From Escherichia phage vB-Eco-KMB35: a stretch of DNA of 43,891 nucleotides. The notes under the pieces are model-generated. The model ran no database searches, was not told where the DNA came from, and saw only the letters and a list, made by a program, of their open reading frames with translations. Below, piece after piece: positions 2,759 through 43,891 of the stretch. Both the position numbers and the translations under genes were made by a program. Numbering within the stretch: the first letter of the stretch is position 1; each line of letters opens with the position of its first letter. Location: sequence record OR525704.1; one strand, given 5' to 3'.

Positions 2759-3835
2759 ATGCTATTAACTTTAGCGCCACAGGGTTTATCTATGAGCTTA
2801 CTTACATCCCTAATCAGCCATCAGATATGGCTGCAACGCACCGCATCCGGTGAAGTGAAAGACCTCACGCCGTTCATTCAGGAGATAAGGGATGAAATCA
2901 AACGGCAGGTGCTGTTATTCGGTGACGACGGTCGCAGCACTGCGCGACTGAATAAACTGTTACGCGACCTGGAAGAAGCACTAACCGGTATTACGGGTGA
3001 CTGGCAAACAAAGCTAACAGACGACCTTAAGGAACTGGCGGCGTACGAGGCTGAGTGGAACGTAAAGACACTGACCGCCAACGTAGACGCGGAATTTGTT
3101 ACGCCTACCGCTGAGCAGGTATGGGCCGCTGCCGAGTTTCAACCATTATCATTGAGCGACAAGCCCGTTGATTTCACTAAGCTGATGGACGGCTGGGGTG
3201 AAACGGAAGTAGCACGTCTTGTAACTGGAGTTAAGATGGGCTTTGTGCAAGGTCAAACCACACGGCAGATTGTTAAGAATGTTGTTGGCGCTGGTGGACT
3301 AGCCGACATCTCAGAACGTAACGCGACTACGGTAATCCGCACCGCGCTGTCCCACGTATCCAACGAGGCCCGTAACGAGACGTACCGCCAGAACGACGAC
3401 ATCATCGAGAAATATGAGTGGGTGTCAACTTTGGACAGCCGTACCAGCACGATTTGCAGGGCCAGAGACGGAATGACGTGGGAAATCGGTAAAGGTCCGA
3501 TGCCACCAGCCCATCCTAATTGCCGAAGTACCACTGCACCGGTAATCAGTTCAGAGTTCGACTTCCTTGATAAAGGCGCAAAACGTGCGGCTAAGGGTGC
3601 GGACGGCGGTACTCAGGTAAGCGCAGACACCACCTATTACGAGTTCCTGAAACAACAACCAGCATGGTTTCAGGACCAGGCGCTCGGTCCTGTTCGCGGT
3701 AAGATTTTCCGTAACAGCGGTATATCGCCGGAAGAGTTTCGCGTAATATCTGTAGATGGTTTCGGGAATCCGCTCACGCTTAAGCAGATGGCGGAACTCG
3801 ATAAACGTGTTGCTGATTATCTGAAAGGGGAATAA
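2759..3835 (+). CDS. Head morphogenesis protein (MuF / SPP1 gp7-like minor head protein)
   Basis: 358-aa ORF after portal; position and size typical of MuF-like proteins. Confidence 0.6.
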   Translation: MLLTLAPQGLSMSLLTSLISHQIWLQRTASGEVKDLTPFIQEIRDEIKRQVLLFGDDGRSTARLNKLLRDLEEALTGITGDWQTKLTDDLKELAAYEAEWNVKTLTANVDAEFVTPTAEQVWAAAEFQPLSLSDKPVDFTKLMDGWGETEVARLVTGVKMGFVQGQTTRQIVKNVVGAGGLADISERNATTVIRTALSHVSNEARNETYRQNDDIIEKYEWVSTLDSRTSTICRARDGMTWEIGKGPMPPAHPNCRSTTAPVISSEFDFLDKGAKRAAKGADGGTQVSADTTYYEFLKQQPAWFQDQALGPVRGKIFRNSGISPEEFRVISVDGFGNPLTLKQMAELDKRVADYLKGE

Positions 3836-4296
3836 TGATGGGCTTTTTCAAAGTAACTGACGTACCGTCTCGTCGCGTAGTCCAGTACGCCCGCGTGTCT
3901 GGCTCTGGCGAGAACGTGGTATTTATTGAGGACGAAAGTGTACTCGGTACACCGGTAGATGATATGCCGTTTGCAGATAAAACCGGTATTGCGTTGCCCG
4001 CCGCCGGTATGCTTTATGAAATTCCGTATCTGGCGGACGCTGGCGACGTGTATTTCTCTGCGCAACCGCAGGACGCTGAACTGGCGGGCGGCAGCGCAAC
4101 CATCACTGTCGAGGTTAAGGCAGGCAAAGCGCCGTATTCTCTGACCTGGTACAAAGACGGTAAGGAAGTGGTGAATGCGCCTGAGGAGGCTCTGTCTCTG
4201 ACGGTTAATGCGGTCGGCGAATACTTCGTTAAAGTTACTGATGCCGATGGAGTAGAGGCGGTAAGCAAAGCGGCGAAGGTTACTAAGCCAGAATGA
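3835..4296 (+). CDS. Ig-like domain protein (possible head decoration or minor structural protein)
   Basis: 153 aa; motif TWYKDGKEV typical of bacterial Ig-like domains; start overlaps previous stop (TAATGATG). Confidence 0.5.
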   Translation: MMGFFKVTDVPSRRVVQYARVSGSGENVVFIEDESVLGTPVDDMPFADKTGIALPAAGMLYEIPYLADAGDVYFSAQPQDAELAGGSATITVEVKAGKAPYSLTWYKDGKEVVNAPEEALSLTVNAVGEYFVKVTDADGVEAVSKAAKVTKPE

Positions 4297-4297
4297 T

Positions 4298-4326
4298 AAA
4301 AGGCCCCATTATGGGGCCTTAGTTTT
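4298..4326. terminator. Bidirectional hairpin ggcccc-attat-ggggcc between convergent genes
   Basis: GC stem flanked by A-run upstream and ttagtttt downstream. Confidence 0.6.
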
Positions 4327-4529
4327 CAACGGAATCTTGTGTTTAAATCCTGCTCATGGACAACCCTCAGAACAGTGTCATAATCCCCGTATCTTCCAGG
4401 TTCAAATATATCTAATGCCTTGTAAGCAGACATTGCGTCAGGGAAAACCTGCAGAACCTTTTTAACCCGGCACAAGTCACCGTCGAACTCTTCATCGAAC
4501 TCTTGAACTACTTCGCAAATTGCATACAT
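4326..4529 (-). CDS. Hypothetical small acidic protein (67 aa), reverse-oriented moron-like gene
   Basis: ATG at 4529 preceded by GGAGGTG RBS and the 32-bp promoter element; ends at bidirectional terminator. Confidence 0.6.
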   Translation of the reverse strand: MYAICEVVQEFDEEFDGDLCRVKKVLQVFPDAMSAYKALDIFEPGRYGDYDTVLRVVHEQDLNTRFR

Positions 4530-4553
4530 TTTTCACCTCCTGTTTAAGTTAAC

Positions 4554-4585
4554 TGAATAGTACCCTATTATATTGGGGTGTGCAA
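4554..4585 (-). promoter_or_regulatory. Promoter element family A (TTGCAC-N17-TACTAT), copy 1
   Basis: Minus-strand sense ttgcacaccccaatataatagggtactattca; 32 nt identical to 13678..13709; directly upstream of gene 4326..4529. Confidence 0.6.
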
Positions 4586-4651
4586 ACTATTTATTTACGT
4601 ATTCCAGTTATTCCTCCGAATTGTAAATGTTGGAATAAACTATTCGAATAG

Positions 4652-4680
4652 TTGACTTTTCACTAAAAATATGATAAGCT
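4652..4680 (+). promoter_or_regulatory. Putative sigma70-like promoter TTGACT-N17-TAAGCT
   Basis: Hexamers at 4652-4657 and 4675-4680 with a 17-nt AT-rich spacer. Confidence 0.3.
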
Positions 4681-4858
4681 CCACCTGAGCTTGTGAAGTA
4701 TGAACAAGCGACCGCGGCGCGGGCAGGTAACGGAGCGGGACGTAAGTCCTGAGTGTAGTTACGCTGACGCGTTCGGAAGGGCCATACTCTATTGCTTGTG
4801 TAAAAAGTAACTGGTTTACTGAGATTACGCCGTTTCTATGTTTAAATGATAAGGACTA

Positions 4859-4888
4859 GCGCCCCGCTTTATGGCGGGGCTTTACTTA
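4859..4888 (+). terminator. Intrinsic terminator gccccgc-tttatg-gcggggc then tttacttat
   Basis: 7-bp GC stem and T-rich tail just upstream of the Rz start. Confidence 0.55.
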
Positions 4889-4904
4889 TCGAGAAAGGGG
4901 AAAC

Positions 4905-5291
4905 ATGAATCTTAAAGCAACTGTCGTAGCAGGAGCATGTTTCATCATCCTGGTTTACGCACACGGCATCTACCAGTATCGCAGCGGATGGAACGAAGGC
5001 CGGGCTAATCTCGTTTCGCAGCAACAGCAGAAAGCACAGGCTGAGTTAGCGAAGAAAACACAACGGCAGCAGCAGGATGAATCGAAGGCCGCCGCCGCTG
5101 ACAACGAAGGCAAGACGAAATCAGAGGTGATTACCCGTGAAGTCGTTAAGTACATTAAAACGCCTGGTCGCAGCGTGTGCACTTTTGACCCTGAGCGCGT
5201 GCAGCTCAAGTCCCGCGCCGTCGCCAACGCCAATTCCATCCCCGGATACGACGATGATGCAGCCGCCGTGCAAACTGGCGCAGCCAAGTAG
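4905..5291 (+). CDS. Rz-like inner-membrane spanin (i-spanin)
   Basis: 128 aa; N-terminal TM helix (VVAGACFIILVYAHGIY), Q/A/K-rich coiled coil, periplasmic Cys; overlapping +1-frame lipoprotein gene. Confidence 0.7.
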   Translation: MNLKATVVAGACFIILVYAHGIYQYRSGWNEGRANLVSQQQQKAQAELAKKTQRQQQDESKAAAADNEGKTKSEVITREVVKYIKTPGRSVCTFDPERVQLKSRAVANANSIPGYDDDAAAVQTGAAK

Positions 5292-5400
5292 CGACGCTGA
5301 TGAGGATTTGGCCGTCGACGTTCAGAATGCTGAATGCGTACGGCAACTGAGACTGAAAGTGTTCATGTTGCAGGATTACGTGAGGAATATTCTGGAATAG
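5137..5400 (+). CDS. Rz1-like outer-membrane lipoprotein spanin (o-spanin)
   Basis: 87 aa; signal peptide with lipobox LSAC, proline-rich mature part (SPAPSPTPIPSP); starts inside Rz in another frame and extends past it. Confidence 0.65.
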   Translation: MKSLSTLKRLVAACALLTLSACSSSPAPSPTPIPSPDTTMMQPPCKLAQPSSDADEDLAVDVQNAECVRQLRLKVFMLQDYVRNILE

Positions 5401-5482
5401 TTGCCTTGCATGTTGGAATAATTTATTCTTGACATGTAAATCCGGGTGGCCCGGATTCCAACGTCCAGGGGACATACTGACT

Positions 5483-6184
5483 ATGAATCGTTTTTTACGT
5501 TATCCGTTCCAGGAAGAAGCTGGAGCAGAAGATAAAGCTGGTGGCGGTGACGCTCCTAAAATGTTCACCGCTGAAGAAGTTCAGGCGCTGATTGAGAAAG
5601 AAGTTGCCGGGCTTAAGGCTAATCAGGAAGCATTGTTGGCGGAGAAGAAAGAAGCCGCTCGCAAAGCAAAAGAGGCCGAAGAAGAACGGCAGCGCGCGCA
5701 CCAGGAGGCGTTAAAAGCCGCTGGTAAGATGGATGAGTTCGAAAAGACGATTCGTAGCCAGTACGACCCTGTGTTAGCCGAGAAAGACGGTCGCATCTCC
5801 AGAATGGCAGAGCGTATCCTCGGCAGCGAACGTAAAGCGGTGCTAGGCTCTTTCGCGGGTGACTTTATTACCCCAGAAGCAGTGGACATTCTTGCGCCGT
5901 TCGTTAAGACTGAGTTCGAAGGCGATGATGTGGTTACTAAGTTTGTTGGTGCAGACGGTAACGTAATCACGACTGACCCGGAACAGTTCCGCAAATACCT
6001 GCGCGAACACAAGGCGTTTTCGCATTTGATCAAAGCAAATGCAGCTTCCGGCGGCGGGGCTTCCGGTAGCAAAGGCGGCGGGGCCGCACCAGCGTTTAAA
6101 GACATGAGTGAAGCAGAGCGTTTAGCCCTGTATAAATCGAACCCTGCCGAATTTGAACGGCAACTTAAAGCCCTGAGGAAATAA
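5483..6184 (+). CDS. Scaffolding protein
   Basis: 233 aa from ATG 5483 (track ORF uses upstream TTG); Ala/Glu/Lys-rich helical protein immediately upstream of major capsid gene. Confidence 0.6.
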   Translation: MNRFLRYPFQEEAGAEDKAGGGDAPKMFTAEEVQALIEKEVAGLKANQEALLAEKKEAARKAKEAEEERQRAHQEALKAAGKMDEFEKTIRSQYDPVLAEKDGRISRMAERILGSERKAVLGSFAGDFITPEAVDILAPFVKTEFEGDDVVTKFVGADGNVITTDPEQFRKYLREHKAFSHLIKANAASGGGASGSKGGGAAPAFKDMSEAERLALYKSNPAEFERQLKALRK

Positions 6185-6186
6185 TA

Positions 6187-7236
6187 ATGGCAATTACCAC
6201 TATCGGCGATATCGTAACTGGCAACATCCCGGTCCTGGCGTCTTATATGACCGAGGACCCGGTAGAAAAAACCGCGTTCTTCCAGTCTGGTATTCTGACC
6301 CCGACCCCGTACGCTGCCGAGATTGCCCGCGGCCCGTCCAACGTCGCTAATATTCCTTTCTGGAAAGCGATTGATACCTCTATCGAGCCGAACTACTCGA
6401 ACGACGTATACCAGGACATCGCCACCCCGCGTAACGTGCAGACCGGCGAGATGATGGCGCGCGTTGCGTACCTGAACGAAGGTTTCGGTCAGGCGGATTT
6501 GACCGTTGAACTGACCAGCCAGAACCCGCTGCAATCCGTAGCGTCACGTCTGGATAACTTCTGGCAGCGTCAGGCACAACGCCGTCTGATTGCTACCGCG
6601 CTCGGGCTGTACAATGGCAACGTAGCCGCTACCGACGCATACCACGAGCAGAATGACATGGTAATCGACGTGTCTGCTACTCTGGGCTTCGATGCGGGCG
6701 CGTTCATCGACGCCACCCAGACTATGGGCGATGCTCTGATGGGCAACGGCGGTGAAGTGCTGGGGGCTATCGCGATGCATAGCTTCGTTTATGCGCAGGC
6801 ACGTAAGCAGCAGCTTATCGACTTCATCCGTGACGCGGACAACAACACCATGTTCGCCACCTACCAGGGCTACCGCGTGATTGTTGACGACAGCATGACC
6901 GTAGTCGGCACTGGCCCGACCCGTAAGTTCATCTCCATCATCTTCGGCAACGGCGCTATCGGTTACGGTGAAGGTTCACCGTCCAACCCGCTGGAATACG
7001 AGCGCGAAGCGTCCCGCGGCAACGGCGGCGGCGTTGAAACCCTGTGGACCCGTAAGACCTGGTTGCTACATCCGTTTGGTTACAGCTTCACCAGTGCAGT
7101 AATCACTGGCAACGGCACCGAGACTACCCCGCGCTCTGCTTCCTGGCAGGACCTGGCGAACGCCTCCAACTGGAACCGTGTGGTTGACCGCAAGCACGTA
7201 CCGATTGCCTTCCTGGTAACTGGTGTCGGTGCTTAA
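6187..7236 (+). CDS. Major capsid protein
   Basis: 349 aa, follows scaffold, strong terminator downstream, high-expression codon pattern. Confidence 0.75.
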   Translation: MAITTIGDIVTGNIPVLASYMTEDPVEKTAFFQSGILTPTPYAAEIARGPSNVANIPFWKAIDTSIEPNYSNDVYQDIATPRNVQTGEMMARVAYLNEGFGQADLTVELTSQNPLQSVASRLDNFWQRQAQRRLIATALGLYNGNVAATDAYHEQNDMVIDVSATLGFDAGAFIDATQTMGDALMGNGGEVLGAIAMHSFVYAQARKQQLIDFIRDADNNTMFATYQGYRVIVDDSMTVVGTGPTRKFISIIFGNGAIGYGEGSPSNPLEYEREASRGNGGGVETLWTRKTWLLHPFGYSFTSAVITGNGTETTPRSASWQDLANASNWNRVVDRKHVPIAFLVTGVGA

Positions 7237-13677: not shown

Positions 13678-13709
13678 TGAATAGTACCCTATTATATTGG
13701 GGTGTGCAA
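13678..13709 (-). promoter_or_regulatory. Promoter element family A, copy 2 (identical to 4554..4585)
   Basis: 32-nt exact repeat; TTGCAC-N17-TACTAT in minus-strand sense, upstream of 13652 start. Confidence 0.6.
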
Positions 13710-36732: not shown

Positions 36733-36769
36733 CCAATCCCTGCAATATTTAATCTTTACAAAAAAGTTA

Positions 36770-36799
36770 TTGAAAGTTCTTGACACATGTTTGTATAAT
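36770..36799 (+). promoter_or_regulatory. Plus-strand promoter TTGAAA-N18-TATAAT
   Basis: Consensus -10, good -35, TG adjacent to -10; divergent from the minus promoter. Confidence 0.5.
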
Positions 36800-36805
36800 G
36801 GTTTT

Positions 36806-37026
36806 GGGACTTGTATATATTACGGAGTTGACGAACCCTCCCCGAGGGATTCGTCAACCCCTCCCAGACAGCTGAGATGCTTGCCTTGTGGTTTAAGGAT
36901 AAGTGTATCTAAATCTCATTTAAAGAAGTAACCCGCTGAAATATCTACTGTTTCTTAATGTGCCGTAGATTCGCAACCGTAAAAATGTAACGATTATTGG
37001 GCAGGCTTAGGGCCTGCCCTTTAGTT
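36806..37026 (+). ncRNA. Candidate small non-coding RNA (promoter to terminator, no ORF)
   Basis: About 220 nt between promoter 36770..36799 and terminator 36999..37026; 13-bp imperfect hairpin 36828..36857; longest ORFs 10-11 codons. Confidence 0.35.
36999..37026 (+). terminator. Intrinsic terminator gggcaggc-ttagg-gcctgccc then tttagtt
   Basis: Perfect 8-bp GC stem with T-rich tail. Confidence 0.6.
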
Positions 37027-37091
37027 ACCAAGTAATAAGAATAAAGGCACAACAGTTTCGAAAGAATCACAACGGCAACGTAACTATTCTC

Positions 37092-37123
37092 TTGCACACC
37101 CCAACATAATAGGATACTATTCA
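37092..37123 (+). promoter_or_regulatory. Promoter element family A (TTGCAC-N17-TACTAT), copy 3, rightward early promoter
   Basis: 30/32 identity to copies at 4554 and 13678 in opposite orientation; 30 nt upstream of ORF 37155. Confidence 0.6.
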
Positions 37124-40123: not shown

Positions 40124-40432
40124 TTGGATAAATTTACTGAAACAGTGACAGGCTGGCTTCTCGCTGCCGCACTAGCCGGAGGGGTAATCGGACTAAGGCA
40201 ACATAAGTCCGCTATTTCCGGCCCTATCGACGGCTTCTGCTTTATTGCAACTGGCTTCACTTGCGCCGTATTTGGCGCACCTCTCGCAGCTCAATGGTTT
40301 GGAATCACGGGCGACCGTGAAATCGCAGGCCTGGGCTTCATTATCGCTATTCTCTGGATGCCTATCTATTCCCGTCTGTCCGGTATCGTCGCCGGAGAAT
40401 ACATCGCACGTCGAGGAGGCCCGGATGAATGA
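40124..40432 (+). CDS. Holin (three predicted TM segments), TTG start
   Basis: 102 aa with three hydrophobic helices; immediately upstream of second TM protein and endolysin. Confidence 0.6.
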   Translation: MDKFTETVTGWLLAAALAGGVIGLRQHKSAISGPIDGFCFIATGFTCAVFGAPLAAQWFGITGDREIAGLGFIIAILWMPIYSRLSGIVAGEYIARRGGPDE

Positions 40433-40697
40433 GTTATTCTGGTTCTGCGGTATGCTGGCAATCGGAGGCACATCGCTGTTTAATGTGTATCATCCCAGCG
40501 TTGACGACGGGCTATTTGGCCGGGTGCTCTATATCCTGACTGCTATTGTCTGCGCCGCAGGATGTATCCACCTGTTACAGGGCAGCATGTCTCCGACGCT
40601 GCCTGAGACATTAATCACATTAGTTGCGCTGCGCCAGATTCGTCAGGCGTGGCTGTCATACGGAGGACATAAGCGTGTCTCGAAATATTTCAGATAA
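40425..40697 (+). CDS. Second holin-like / antiholin membrane protein (two TM segments)
   Basis: 90 aa from ATG 40425 overlapping holin stop (ATGAATGA); two hydrophobic helices. Confidence 0.5.
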   Translation: MNELFWFCGMLAIGGTSLFNVYHPSVDDGLFGRVLYILTAIVCAAGCIHLLQGSMSPTLPETLITLVALRQIRQAWLSYGGHKRVSKYFR

Positions 40698-41163
40698 TGG
40701 ATTGCATTTCACCGCTGCGTTCGAGGGATTCCGCGGAACTGCATACCGCGCTACGCCGAACGAGAAGTACCTGACTATCGGGTACGGGCACTATGGGCCG
40801 GACGTAACCCCGGGTAAGACCATCACACCGGGGCAAGGCCTCCTGTTACTGAATCGCGATATGGCTAAGGCCGTAGCTGCGGTTGATGTGGCGGCACACC
40901 ATTCGCTGACACAGGCACAGTTCGACGCTGTGTGCGACCTGGTCTATAACGCCGGTGCTGGTGTGATTGCAGCTGCTACCGGCACAGGAAAGGCGCTGCG
41001 TTCTGGTGACATCGCGACACTGCGGGCTAAACTGGCGCTGTTTATCAACCAGAACGGCAAACCGTTACTTGGTCTGCGCCGCCGTACTGCCGGGCGTCTT
41101 GCACTGTTTGACGGCAAGCCGTGGCAGGAGGCGGAGGCCATTGGGCGCGCGGTGAAAGGTTGA
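40675..41163 (+). CDS. Endolysin, T4 E-like lysozyme (glycoside hydrolase family 24-like)
   Basis: GTG 40675 with GGAGGA RBS; FEGFRGTAYRATPNEKYLTIGYGH matches T4 lysozyme EG-R--Y-D--G--TIG-GH catalytic region. Confidence 0.8.
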   Translation: MSRNISDNGLHFTAAFEGFRGTAYRATPNEKYLTIGYGHYGPDVTPGKTITPGQGLLLLNRDMAKAVAAVDVAAHHSLTQAQFDAVCDLVYNAGAGVIAAATGTGKALRSGDIATLRAKLALFINQNGKPLLGLRRRTAGRLALFDGKPWQEAEAIGRAVKG

Positions 41164-43255: not shown

Positions 43256-43348
43256 TACATCCCGCCCAATCCCCTTATATAATCCCTTTAGACGCGTAGG
43301 GCGCGTCTGGTGCGCTCTGATGGTCAGACGCATATGCAAGGGGATTCT

Positions 43349-43858
43349 ATGAAGCTGAAACTTAAGCAGCCATCGCCAGAGGTGGTACAAGCTGCACATG
43401 AAGAAGCTGTTAGCGCAAACCGTCGCCGTAAACGACCGCGCGGTAAACAGAGCCTTTATCAATCATCCCGTAATTCCGCCGCGTTGTGGGACCCGGGCTA
43501 TTGCGATGCACTAATCGAGTTCTTCGACCGCACGTCGTGGGAGCTTGTGCCTACGTCTAAGGGTGACGAACGCCCGCTGATTCAGGATAAACCACCGTCA
43601 CTGGCCCGCTTCGCCTTACACATCGGAGTCACTATCCCGATTATTAAGCTTTGGCTGCGTGAGATTCCCGCATTTGCAGAAGCCTATGAAACGGCGCAGG
43701 CGCTGGAAGAGGCGTACTTCACCGAGACAGGGGCCGCGGGCATCTCTGCTACGTTTGCTGCTGCGAAACTGGGGTTGAATAAAACAGTTGTCGCCGAAGA
43801 AGTACGCGACGAGCCAATCAGCGAAGTAACAATTAAGGTGGTGTCCGGTGAACGTTAA
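43349..43858 (+). CDS. terS: Terminase small subunit (putative)
   Basis: 169 aa from ATG 43349 (RBS AAGGGG); basic N-terminal region RRRKRPRGK; immediately precedes and overlaps terL start. Confidence 0.5.
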   Translation: MKLKLKQPSPEVVQAAHEEAVSANRRRKRPRGKQSLYQSSRNSAALWDPGYCDALIEFFDRTSWELVPTSKGDERPLIQDKPPSLARFALHIGVTIPIIKLWLREIPAFAEAYETAQALEEAYFTETGAAGISATFAAAKLGLNKTVVAEEVRDEPISEVTIKVVSGER

Positions 43859-43891
43859 TATCACGGCAACGGAGCCGCAAGGCGCGTTTCT
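43848..43891 (+). CDS. terL: Terminase large subunit, first 15 codons (continues at window position 2)
   Basis: GTG 43848 with AAGGTGG RBS 6 nt upstream; reading frame is continuous across the window junction into ORF 2..1228. Confidence 0.6.
   Translation, partial: MNVNITATEPQGAF

Follow-up and report, generated by a model that had tools for sequence, protein, structure and literature searches.

In the lambda Rz/Rz1 model of spanin function, an inner-membrane protein and an outer-membrane protein bind each other in the periplasm and are restrained by peptidoglycan until the cell wall is degraded. In lambda, a type II inner-membrane protein is paired with a small lipoprotein of the outer membrane that is read from the same DNA in the +1 frame, and there is periplasmic cysteine; the Rz1 gene lies entirely within Rz, and the two close the S-R-Rz cassette. 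The LysB/LysC genes of P2 are overlapped, not embedded, and also reside in the lysis cassette. T4 PseT.3/PseT.2 represent a different arrangement, in which the spanin genes lie away from the holin and the endolysin (PMC6139136). They are separated rather than overlapped, and in this phage the holin and the endolysin are themselves unlinked from each other. Closest to the locus considered here are the 'Jersey' i-spanin and o-spanin families catalogued by Kongari et al. 2018, which cover 27 phages and belong to the overlapped class (PMC6139136). They include Jersey, SETP3 and SETP13 (SETP13 and Jersey being members of Jerseyvirus), K1G, K1H and K1ind1-3 of Kagunavirus, and HK578 of Dhillonvirus; in phage Jersey itself the overlap is 155 bp, and Cys45 and Cys67 of the o-spanin are constant (PMC6139136).

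We analysed a gene pair of Escherichia phage vB-Eco-KMB35 within the whole 43,891-nucleotide stretch of its DNA (OR525704.1), hereafter the window. With lambda Rz/Rz1 the pair shares the predicted topology, the +1 frame of the lipoprotein gene and the periplasmic cysteine, but its o-spanin gene runs 109 bp past the i-spanin gene and the pair sits in the head module. Overlap without embedding is what it has in common with P2, although not the location in a lysis cassette, whereas remoteness from the holin and endolysin genes is what it has in common with T4, whose spanins form an unrelated sequence family. Relative to the 'Jersey' families there is no substantive difference; the window o-spanin starts with GTG. 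Judging from the sequence data set out below, we consider it highly likely (a probability of roughly 0.93) that this Kagunavirus phage has its two-component spanin in ORFs 4905..5291 and 5137..5400, and that both belong to the 'Jersey' families.

Genome map and position of the gene pair

Region 4300-6200 of the window shares 99.9% identity with Escherichia phage SonjaBuckley_Bas74 (Bas74) and 96-99% with numerous further Kagunavirus siphophages that infect E. coli. This region is matched by 482 phage records in total, most of them Salmonella Jerseyvirus and Escherichia Kagunavirus (Guernseyvirinae). When aligned with positions 1-1882 of Bas74 (98% identity), the window continues from its last letter to its first with no interruption, and a 429-codon frame of the terminase large-subunit gene, terL, crosses the junction. 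The window is therefore a complete, circularly permuted Kagunavirus (Guernseyvirinae) genome opened inside terL. The neighbours of the pair and the genes of the lysis cassette are as follows.

3835..4296: Hoc-like decoration gene, upstream neighbour of the pair
4326..4529, reverse strand: 67-aa ORF, upstream neighbour of the pair
ATG at 5484: scaffold gene, downstream neighbour of the pair
40124..40432, + strand: holin (phrog_2359)
about 40425..40697, + strand: second holin/antiholin (phrog_2508)
about 40675..41163, + strand: soluble GH24-type endolysin (PF00959)

PHROG and Pfam matches, together with the ORF scan, bear out the original prediction that holin, antiholin and endolysin genes occupy 40124..41163 with no spanin adjoining them: neither the ORF list nor the lipobox scan contains an ORF with a transmembrane segment or a lipobox after this cassette. 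A location in or next to the holin-endolysin cassette is a usual, non-obligatory trait of spanin genes, and the window pair does not display it. The distance of about 35 kb that had been claimed, however, is a product of linear numbering. On the linear map the cassette and the pair are 34.7 kb apart, whereas on the circular map the pair lies only 7,633 bp (7.6 kb) downstream of the endolysin stop. The two are co-oriented on the circular genome, and all genes between them are on the + strand, the reverse-strand ORF 4326..4529 being the sole exception. As for the immediate surroundings, the pair had been placed between head-morphogenesis and scaffold genes; the scaffold gene indeed follows, but the head-morphogenesis gene is one gene further up.

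The overlapping i-spanin and o-spanin genes

The features of the two genes, all on the + strand, are listed below.

4895..4900, + strand: Shine-Dalgarno-like AAGGGG before the i-spanin ATG, kept in SETP13 and in the L13-like type
4905..5291, + strand: putative i-spanin gene, ATG start, 128 aa (ORF list; phrog_2536, E = 4.8e-57)
4917-4973, + strand: predicted N-terminal transmembrane helix of the i-spanin, residues about 5-23 (hydrophobicity)
5123..5127, + strand: Shine-Dalgarno-like AGAGG, 9-10 nt upstream of the o-spanin GTG at 5137
5137..5291, + strand: two-frame overlap of 155 bp, encoding the i-spanin C-terminus and the o-spanin signal peptide and linker
5137..5400, + strand: putative o-spanin gene, GTG start, 87-aa precursor (ORF list; phrog_1267, E = 3e-21)
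5191-5202, + strand: o-spanin lipobox LSAC, with Cys22

The upstream gene product is matched by phrog_2536 ('Rz-like spanin') over residues 1-128, its entire length. Its maximum 18-residue hydropathy is 2.02, and the AlphaFold model, computed from the single sequence, has one helix spanning residues 3-63 (pLDDT 75-92) and a second one at residues 69-79, the C-terminal half of the protein being modelled with low confidence. A sequence search of the PDB with the i-spanin returned no relative. Taken together, these features suggest a single N-terminal transmembrane domain followed by a mostly helical domain that would be periplasmic. Both the N-terminal membrane anchor and the periplasmic cysteine that had been predicted for this ORF were recovered; the lone periplasmic cysteine is Cys92, invariant in five genera-level homologues. 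The coiled coil proposed at the same time holds up as far as a long polar helix, in the periplasmic part of which hydrophobic heptad positions are scarce. Across Kagunavirus, Jerseyvirus, Cornellvirus, Dhillonvirus and a Klebsiella phage, the i-spanin keeps the block ITREVVKY..P.R.VC.F.

The product of the second gene is matched by phrog_1267 ('Rz-like spanin') over residues 9-86. Its residues 1-22, MKSLSTLKRLVAACALLTLSAC, comprise a basic n-region, a hydrophobic core and the lipobox LSAC; the sequence SSS follows, and the +2 residue is Ser, not Asp. The mature part of 66 aa has a Pro-rich linker and contains Cys45 and Cys67. The lipoprotein signal was called by a rule-based lipobox scan that considered every start codon in six frames of the whole genome, and it agrees with the lipoprotein signal and proline-rich body described for this ORF at the outset. 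Apart from the o-spanin, the only match in the genome was a 31-aa ORF inside a tail gene; the six-frame scan found no other credible lipoprotein ORF and no further spanin candidate elsewhere in the genome.

The o-spanin frame is +1 relative to the i-spanin start at 4905, and the overlapped arrangement of the original prediction is thus present as a 155-bp overlap in different frames, also found in the related loci L001 and L007. An overlap of this length and o-spanin cysteines at positions 45 and 67 are the features reported for the 'Jersey' families, and the window i-spanin and o-spanin are each 67% identical to their SETP13 counterparts. By these sequence features the pair can be counted as a further member of the 'Jersey' i-/o-spanin families, or PHROG 2536 and 1267. 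The label 'Rz/Rz1-type', by which the pair had first been described, fits in topology and function only, and not as membership of the lambda Rz/Rz1 sequence families: a Pfam scan gave no match to lambda Rz (Phage_lysis) or Rz1 at E <= 0.1. DUF2514 scored 16.8 bits against the pair, below its cut-off of 26, and the NCBIfam model NF038368 (P2_Rz1) scored 17.3 bits (E = 0.004), below its cut-off of 27, the pair not being a member of P2 LysC. None of the curated Pfam/NCBIfam spanin models reaches its threshold for the pair.

Conservation and synteny

Relatives that are 96-99.9% identical have both genes annotated as spanins in GenBank, at the same position, and the pair, intact in the window, is retained in >600 phage records from several genera. 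When compared with SETP13 over the non-overlapped parts, the i-spanin gene has a dN/dS of 0.29 and the o-spanin gene of 0.06, indicating that both are under purifying selection. The lipobox Cys, Cys45 and Cys67 of the o-spanin are invariant in an alignment of Kagunavirus, Jerseyvirus, Cornellvirus, Dhillonvirus and Klebsiella phage sequences. A scan of IMG/VR identified 43 related loci, with an overlapping o-spanin homologue at every i-spanin except those of L045 and L049, and L049 has an overlapping ORF with a lipoprotein-like signal that is too diverged for homology detection. In the 38 loci that could be parsed (in addition to the window), the lipobox Cys and two further cysteines are always present and the +2 residue is never Asp; mature o-spanins are 60-66 aa long with three cysteines, and their signal peptides are unrelated in sequence. 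These counts leave aside 11 other loci that gave no full o-spanin parse, namely L002 and L008, in which the lipobox is LNGC, with an Asn at -2 that the pattern excludes, and nine in which the o-spanin motif was unmatched.

Synteny, which had been proposed as a check, holds in related phages. SETP13 (Jerseyvirus), vB_CECAV_044 (Cornellvirus) and JLBYU60 (Dhillonvirus) all have the pair in the same slot between head-morphogenesis/Hoc and scaffold genes. The start of the i-spanin gene and the stop of the head-morphogenesis gene overlap in JLBYU60, where the i-spanin gene is simply part of the late head operon. In many prophage-like contigs, a pair with about 40% identity directly follows a gene for a holin (PF04971, PF16080 or PF05106) and one for a Phage_lysozyme endolysin (PF00959), and Klebsiella phage KpnBHU6 likewise has a homologous pair directly behind holin and lysozyme. 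The placement of the approximately 40% identical homologues supports a role of the family in lysis.

A conserved noncoding module upstream of the pair

The DNA preceding the i-spanin gene contains three elements that recur together.

4651..4679, + strand: promoter-like TTGACT-N17-TAAGCT with an extended -10 TG, conserved in all three module variants
4681..4795, + strand: candidate structured noncoding RNA, a 5' hairpin and an extended hairpin of about 68 nt
4861..4880, + strand: GC-rich terminator-like hairpin of 8 bp, 7 of them G-C, with a short U tract (terminator scan)

In the module, the promoter-like site is followed by about 110 nt of GC-rich sequence, a stretch that varies and, last, the hairpin at 4861-4880. 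The promoter-like site scores below the hexamer threshold of the scan and was recognised by inspection and conservation only. The hairpin, whose recovery by the terminator scan agrees with the terminator predicted in front of the pair, is followed by UUUACUUAU and lies 24 nt before the i-spanin start; in L007/L062 and in type B sequences, compensatory changes preserve its stem. When the window is compared with SETP13, the stretch of 375 bp from the reverse-strand ORF to the i-spanin gene is 95-97% identical and segment 4640-4904 is 97% identical, versus 72-78% for the adjoining spanin DNA. A copy of the module lies directly upstream of the spanin pair in every locus inspected. The window-like variant A matched 180 phage records, and a further search with variant B, which is like that of phage L13 and about 70% identical, matched 269; this adds up to 449 records, compared with 482 for region 4300-6200, with the proviso that the two sets may overlap.

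Variants A, B and C, folded independently, all adopt the same structure of a 5' hairpin and a long three-part hairpin, and RNAalifold yields 15 consensus pairs, five of which display compensatory changes. Variant C is a second copy that some relatives have in their early control region, at the equivalent of window positions 36736-37061, and it is accompanied by the same promoter. A search with covariance model R1 found no second copy in the window, which has one; in Cornellvirus, Dhillonvirus and prophage-type loci the model likewise found no copy, returning only those already known. Rfam searches with the window at gathering thresholds, with 4280-5500 at E <= 10 and with three related loci produced nothing meaningful for the upstream element, and a tRNA/tmRNA scan was negative. 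No E. coli genome matched 4640-4900, so that the element does not derive from the host or from a prophage in E. coli. A 36-aa ORF at 4700..4810, annotated as a hypothetical protein in Bas74, was considered and rejected as coding; since the type B variant has neither its ATG nor its frame, the segment is unlikely to be coding.

We tentatively propose, as a reading that we ourselves consider rather doubtful, that the promoter site, the RNA and the hairpin together make up a cis-acting regulatory RNA not previously described in Kagunavirus and Jerseyvirus. It might, for instance, work by promoter-proximal antitermination, following a logic like that of HK022 put or lambda PR'-6S-tR', and let RNA polymerase that started at this promoter pass the hairpin at 4861-4880. 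If true, polymerase would read into the spanin, scaffold and capsid genes, which would make the spanin genes the first cistrons of a late transcription unit under separate control. The regulatory-RNA reading gains support from variant C, which in some relatives comes directly after that promoter in the early control region. An equally open alternative is that the RNA represents a free-standing phage sRNA unrelated to spanin expression. A literature search for noncoding RNA or antitermination in these phages returned nothing, Bas74 has no annotated Q-type antiterminator, and the accessible text of Guernseyvirinae genome notes does not discuss transcription of the pair or the upstream noncoding module. 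The RNA module is the only element described here that could lead to something new.

Proposed mode of action and alternative explanations

A spanin function of the pair is supported by its architecture, homology and gene context; our literature search found no experiment on any member of the 'Jersey' families. By analogy with the lambda model, the i-spanin would insert into the inner membrane through its N-terminal helix, with the helical domain in the periplasm. The o-spanin would be exported, lipidated at Cys22, cut by signal peptidase II and, since it has Ser and not Asp at +2, directed to the outer membrane. The C-terminal parts of both proteins would then bind each other to form complexes spanning the periplasm, probably stabilised by disulfides through the conserved cysteines; i-spanin C92 and o-spanin C45 and C67, all of them invariant, are available for intermolecular bonds. 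Such complexes would build up harmlessly during late infection, held by the peptidoglycan mesh. When the holins (40124..40697) have let the endolysin out and the wall has been broken down, the complexes would fuse or otherwise disrupt both membranes and thereby complete lysis.

In this scheme no tight genetic link to the holin would be needed, because it is the peptidoglycan itself that restrains the spanins. With the wall acting as the restraint, expression along with late head genes would suffice, which would explain why the position of the genes can drift. In Kagunavirus, Jerseyvirus, Cornellvirus and Dhillonvirus the spanins would be expressed among the late head genes. In the window, their transcription probably takes one of two routes, or both: read-through from the late head genes, or initiation at the conserved promoter-like site at 4651. 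Polymerase starting at 4651 would have to pass the hairpin at 4861-4880.

The absence of a link to the holin-endolysin cassette in the window also invites a different explanation, according to which the pair would be a membrane protein and an outer-membrane lipoprotein that serve in superinfection exclusion or mask the receptor, in the manner of T5 Llp or Cor-type lipoproteins, and are expressed together with the head genes. Accessory 'moron' genes on the opposite strand do occupy the slot between Hoc and scaffold, and, as noted above, the pair passes the threshold of no curated spanin HMM. However, many prophage-like contigs have homologues immediately after their holin and endolysin genes, and the two-frame overlap, the short Pro-rich lipoprotein and the conserved cysteine pattern are typical of spanins. 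A phage that infects a Gram-negative host and has a canonical holin and endolysin is, moreover, expected to have a spanin, and there is no other one in this genome, whereas Bas74 has a separate superinfection immunity protein annotated elsewhere. We therefore regard an exclusion or masking function as very unlikely. That the pair is an inactive relic and the outer membrane is disrupted by other means might be suggested by its unusual location and by the terminator-like hairpin directly upstream, but the genes are intact, are under purifying selection and persist across the >600 records mentioned above, leaving this idea with next to no chance of being correct. Spanin function thus remains the preferred reading, and the spanin identity of the original prediction stands on the PHROG matches, the architecture, the conserved cysteines, the selection pattern and the homologues located in lysis cassettes.

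Another alternative concerns the o-spanin product rather than the pair as a whole. In Bas74 and RefSeq SETP13 the o-spanin is recorded as a protein of 47 aa that starts with MMQPPCK and has no signal peptide, and PHROG 5672 is a 47-position profile of this truncated form. If only this product (5257..5400) were made, there would be no lipoprotein and no classical two-component spanin. Yet the frame is open further upstream, with a start codon, a basic/hydrophobic signal and a lipobox Cys in 38 of the 38 parsed loci, and this signal is kept even where its sequence is unrelated; phrog_1267 aligns over residues 9-86, the GTG at 5137 is preceded by the Shine-Dalgarno-like AGAGG, and the long lipoprotein form is what Kongari et al. 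2018 take as the o-spanin (PMC6139136). Exclusive synthesis of the 47-aa protein is accordingly very improbable. Because the upstream lipobox is conserved, the sequences indicate that the long form is the real one and the 47-aa annotation an error, and the o-spanin entries without a lipoprotein signal in many GenBank/RefSeq records and in PHROG 5672 need correcting.

Relation to published phages

Both the spanin family and its place among head genes have already been described for Guernseyvirinae, which makes the pair an ordinary find. The novelty implied by the original prediction does not survive: the family was catalogued by Kongari et al. 2018, and separation of spanins from the holin-endolysin cassette has been published. 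The reports on Schulenberg (PMC6763661) and fBC-Eco01 (PMC9825357) state that the spanins are apart from holin and endolysin, and in the Golestan paper ORF7 and ORF8 are given as the spanins and ORF66-68 as the holins and endolysin (PMC7203180). All three phages resemble the window in having the spanins near head genes and the holins/endolysin near the other linear end. An older precedent for unlinked spanins is provided by T4 pseT.3/pseT.2 (PMC6139136). For the pair itself, then, little is at stake beyond confirming a catalogued family and a published gene position. The family is a clear case of spanins moving as a unit, in prophage-like elements within the lysis cassette and in Guernseyvirinae and Dhillonvirus within the head module, and this fits the view that peptidoglycan restrains spanins and that no regulatory link to the holin is needed.

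Repeats and a hairpin flanking the pair

Three short elements, all on the + strand, lie on either side of the pair.

4627..4638, + strand: ATGTTGGAATAA, copy 1, core TGGAATAA-ACT-ATTC, a short dyad just upstream of TTGACT
5410..5421, + strand: ATGTTGGAATAA, copy 2, core TGGAATAA-TTT-ATTC, 10 nt after the o-spanin stop
5439..5457, + strand: hairpin AAUCCGGG-UGG-CCCGGAUU, between the o-spanin stop and the scaffold ATG at 5484

The flanking repeat that had been pointed out does occur exactly twice, but two copies by themselves carry no significance. In 44 kb, chance would be expected to yield about 57 pairs of identical 12-mers, and self-comparison of the window returned several other chance 12-13-mers; the 12-mer was accordingly rejected as a significant repeat. 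Relatives keep only the core TGGAATAA-N3-ATTC at both sites, and half-site hexamers such as GGAATA are not enriched genome-wide. A TTGACA at 5431 was likewise rejected as a scaffold promoter, having no acceptable -10 hexamer and reading TTGTTA in SETP13. The hairpin at 5439..5457 has an invariant core stem, and its flanking pairs have co-changed in SETP13 and L008.

A conserved candidate RNA module precedes the spanin genes

Directly upstream of the spanin genes lies a module better conserved than they are: between Kagunavirus and Jerseyvirus its identity is 97%, versus 72-78% for the neighbouring genes.

Features upstream of the spanin genes
4651-4885 (+): module of promoter-like site, structured RNA and GC hairpin
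4681-4795 (+): conserved structured RNA of ~110 nt, part of this module
4700-4810 (+): 36-aa ORF inside the conserved RNA, "hypothetical protein" in Bas74 (a Kagunavirus, near-identical over the region compared) and other records

Variants of the module were found in 180 + 269 phage records, the fold of its RNA is backed by compensatory base changes, and Rfam 15 gave no match. We consider the module a candidate: a phage ncRNA or leader that would be new. The 36-aa ORF is probably not a gene, since both its start codon and its frame are missing from variant B, the form typified by phage L13.

In some related phages, a second copy of the same promoter and RNA occupies the early divergent control region (6708-6990 in locus L091 and 11302-11580 in L087). 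The equivalent part of the window, 36736-37061, carries a different module, which has a promoter-like site, a noncoding stretch of ~230 nt and a terminator.

Early control region of the window
36770-37025: promoter-like site, noncoding stretch and terminator, with terminator hairpin GGGCAGGC-TTAG-GGCCTGCCC

Upstream of the spanins in Cornellvirus-type relatives, the noncoding element is a different one and is longer (L004 1690-2060; L011 2100-2440), with several GNRA-capped hairpins such as GAUGC-GAAA-GCAUC and GGGCC-GUAA-GGCCU. It had no match in Rfam, and the covariance model built for the Kagunavirus element did not pick it up. In yet another type of relative (L009 2200-2440; L010 2150-2440), the motifs TTGCGAGT / ACTCGCAA recur in the noncoding region upstream of the spanin pair, an arrangement reminiscent of an operator array.

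Promoter-like repeats and a variable accessory slot

Repeats and accessory slot
4300-4320: hairpin separating the 67-aa ORF from the Hoc-like gene
4326-4529 (-): 67-aa ORF, putative, weak match to phrog_27256
4554-4585 (+), 13678-13709 (+), 37092-37123 (-): 32-bp repeat TGAATAGTACCCTATTATATTGGGGTGTGCAA

The reverse complement of the repeat reads TTGCAC-N17-TACTAT and is promoter-like; the repeat also fits the "phage promoter" consensus of the Guernseyvirinae phage fBC-Eco01, tgAATAGTa-ccTATTat-T (PMC9825357). The first two copies are located directly upstream of leftward accessory genes, in an orientation suited to driving them, and the third faces rightward to early genes. The 67-aa ORF sits in a slot whose content varies: the Jerseyvirus relative SETP13 has endonuclease VII there, and Cornellvirus has a RusA-like resolvase.

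The o-spanin gene, its downstream spacer and the genome ends

The real start of the o-spanin is GTG 5137. Public records (Bas74_0009; SETP13 V186_gp09) list a 47-aa o-spanin without the signal peptide, equivalent to 5257-5400 of the window, and PHROG 5672 was built from this truncated form. Between the o-spanin and scaffold genes lies a well-conserved spacer, 5401-5483 (+); its hairpin has an invariant core stem, with flanking pairs that co-vary in Jerseyvirus.

Spacer and terminase features
Within 5401-5483 (+): GGAATAGTTGCC, dyad TGGAATAATTTATTC and hairpin 5439-5457
43310..43858: terS
43848-43891 joined to 1-1228: terminase large-subunit junction

The window holds a complete genome, circularly permuted and opened within the terminase large-subunit gene.
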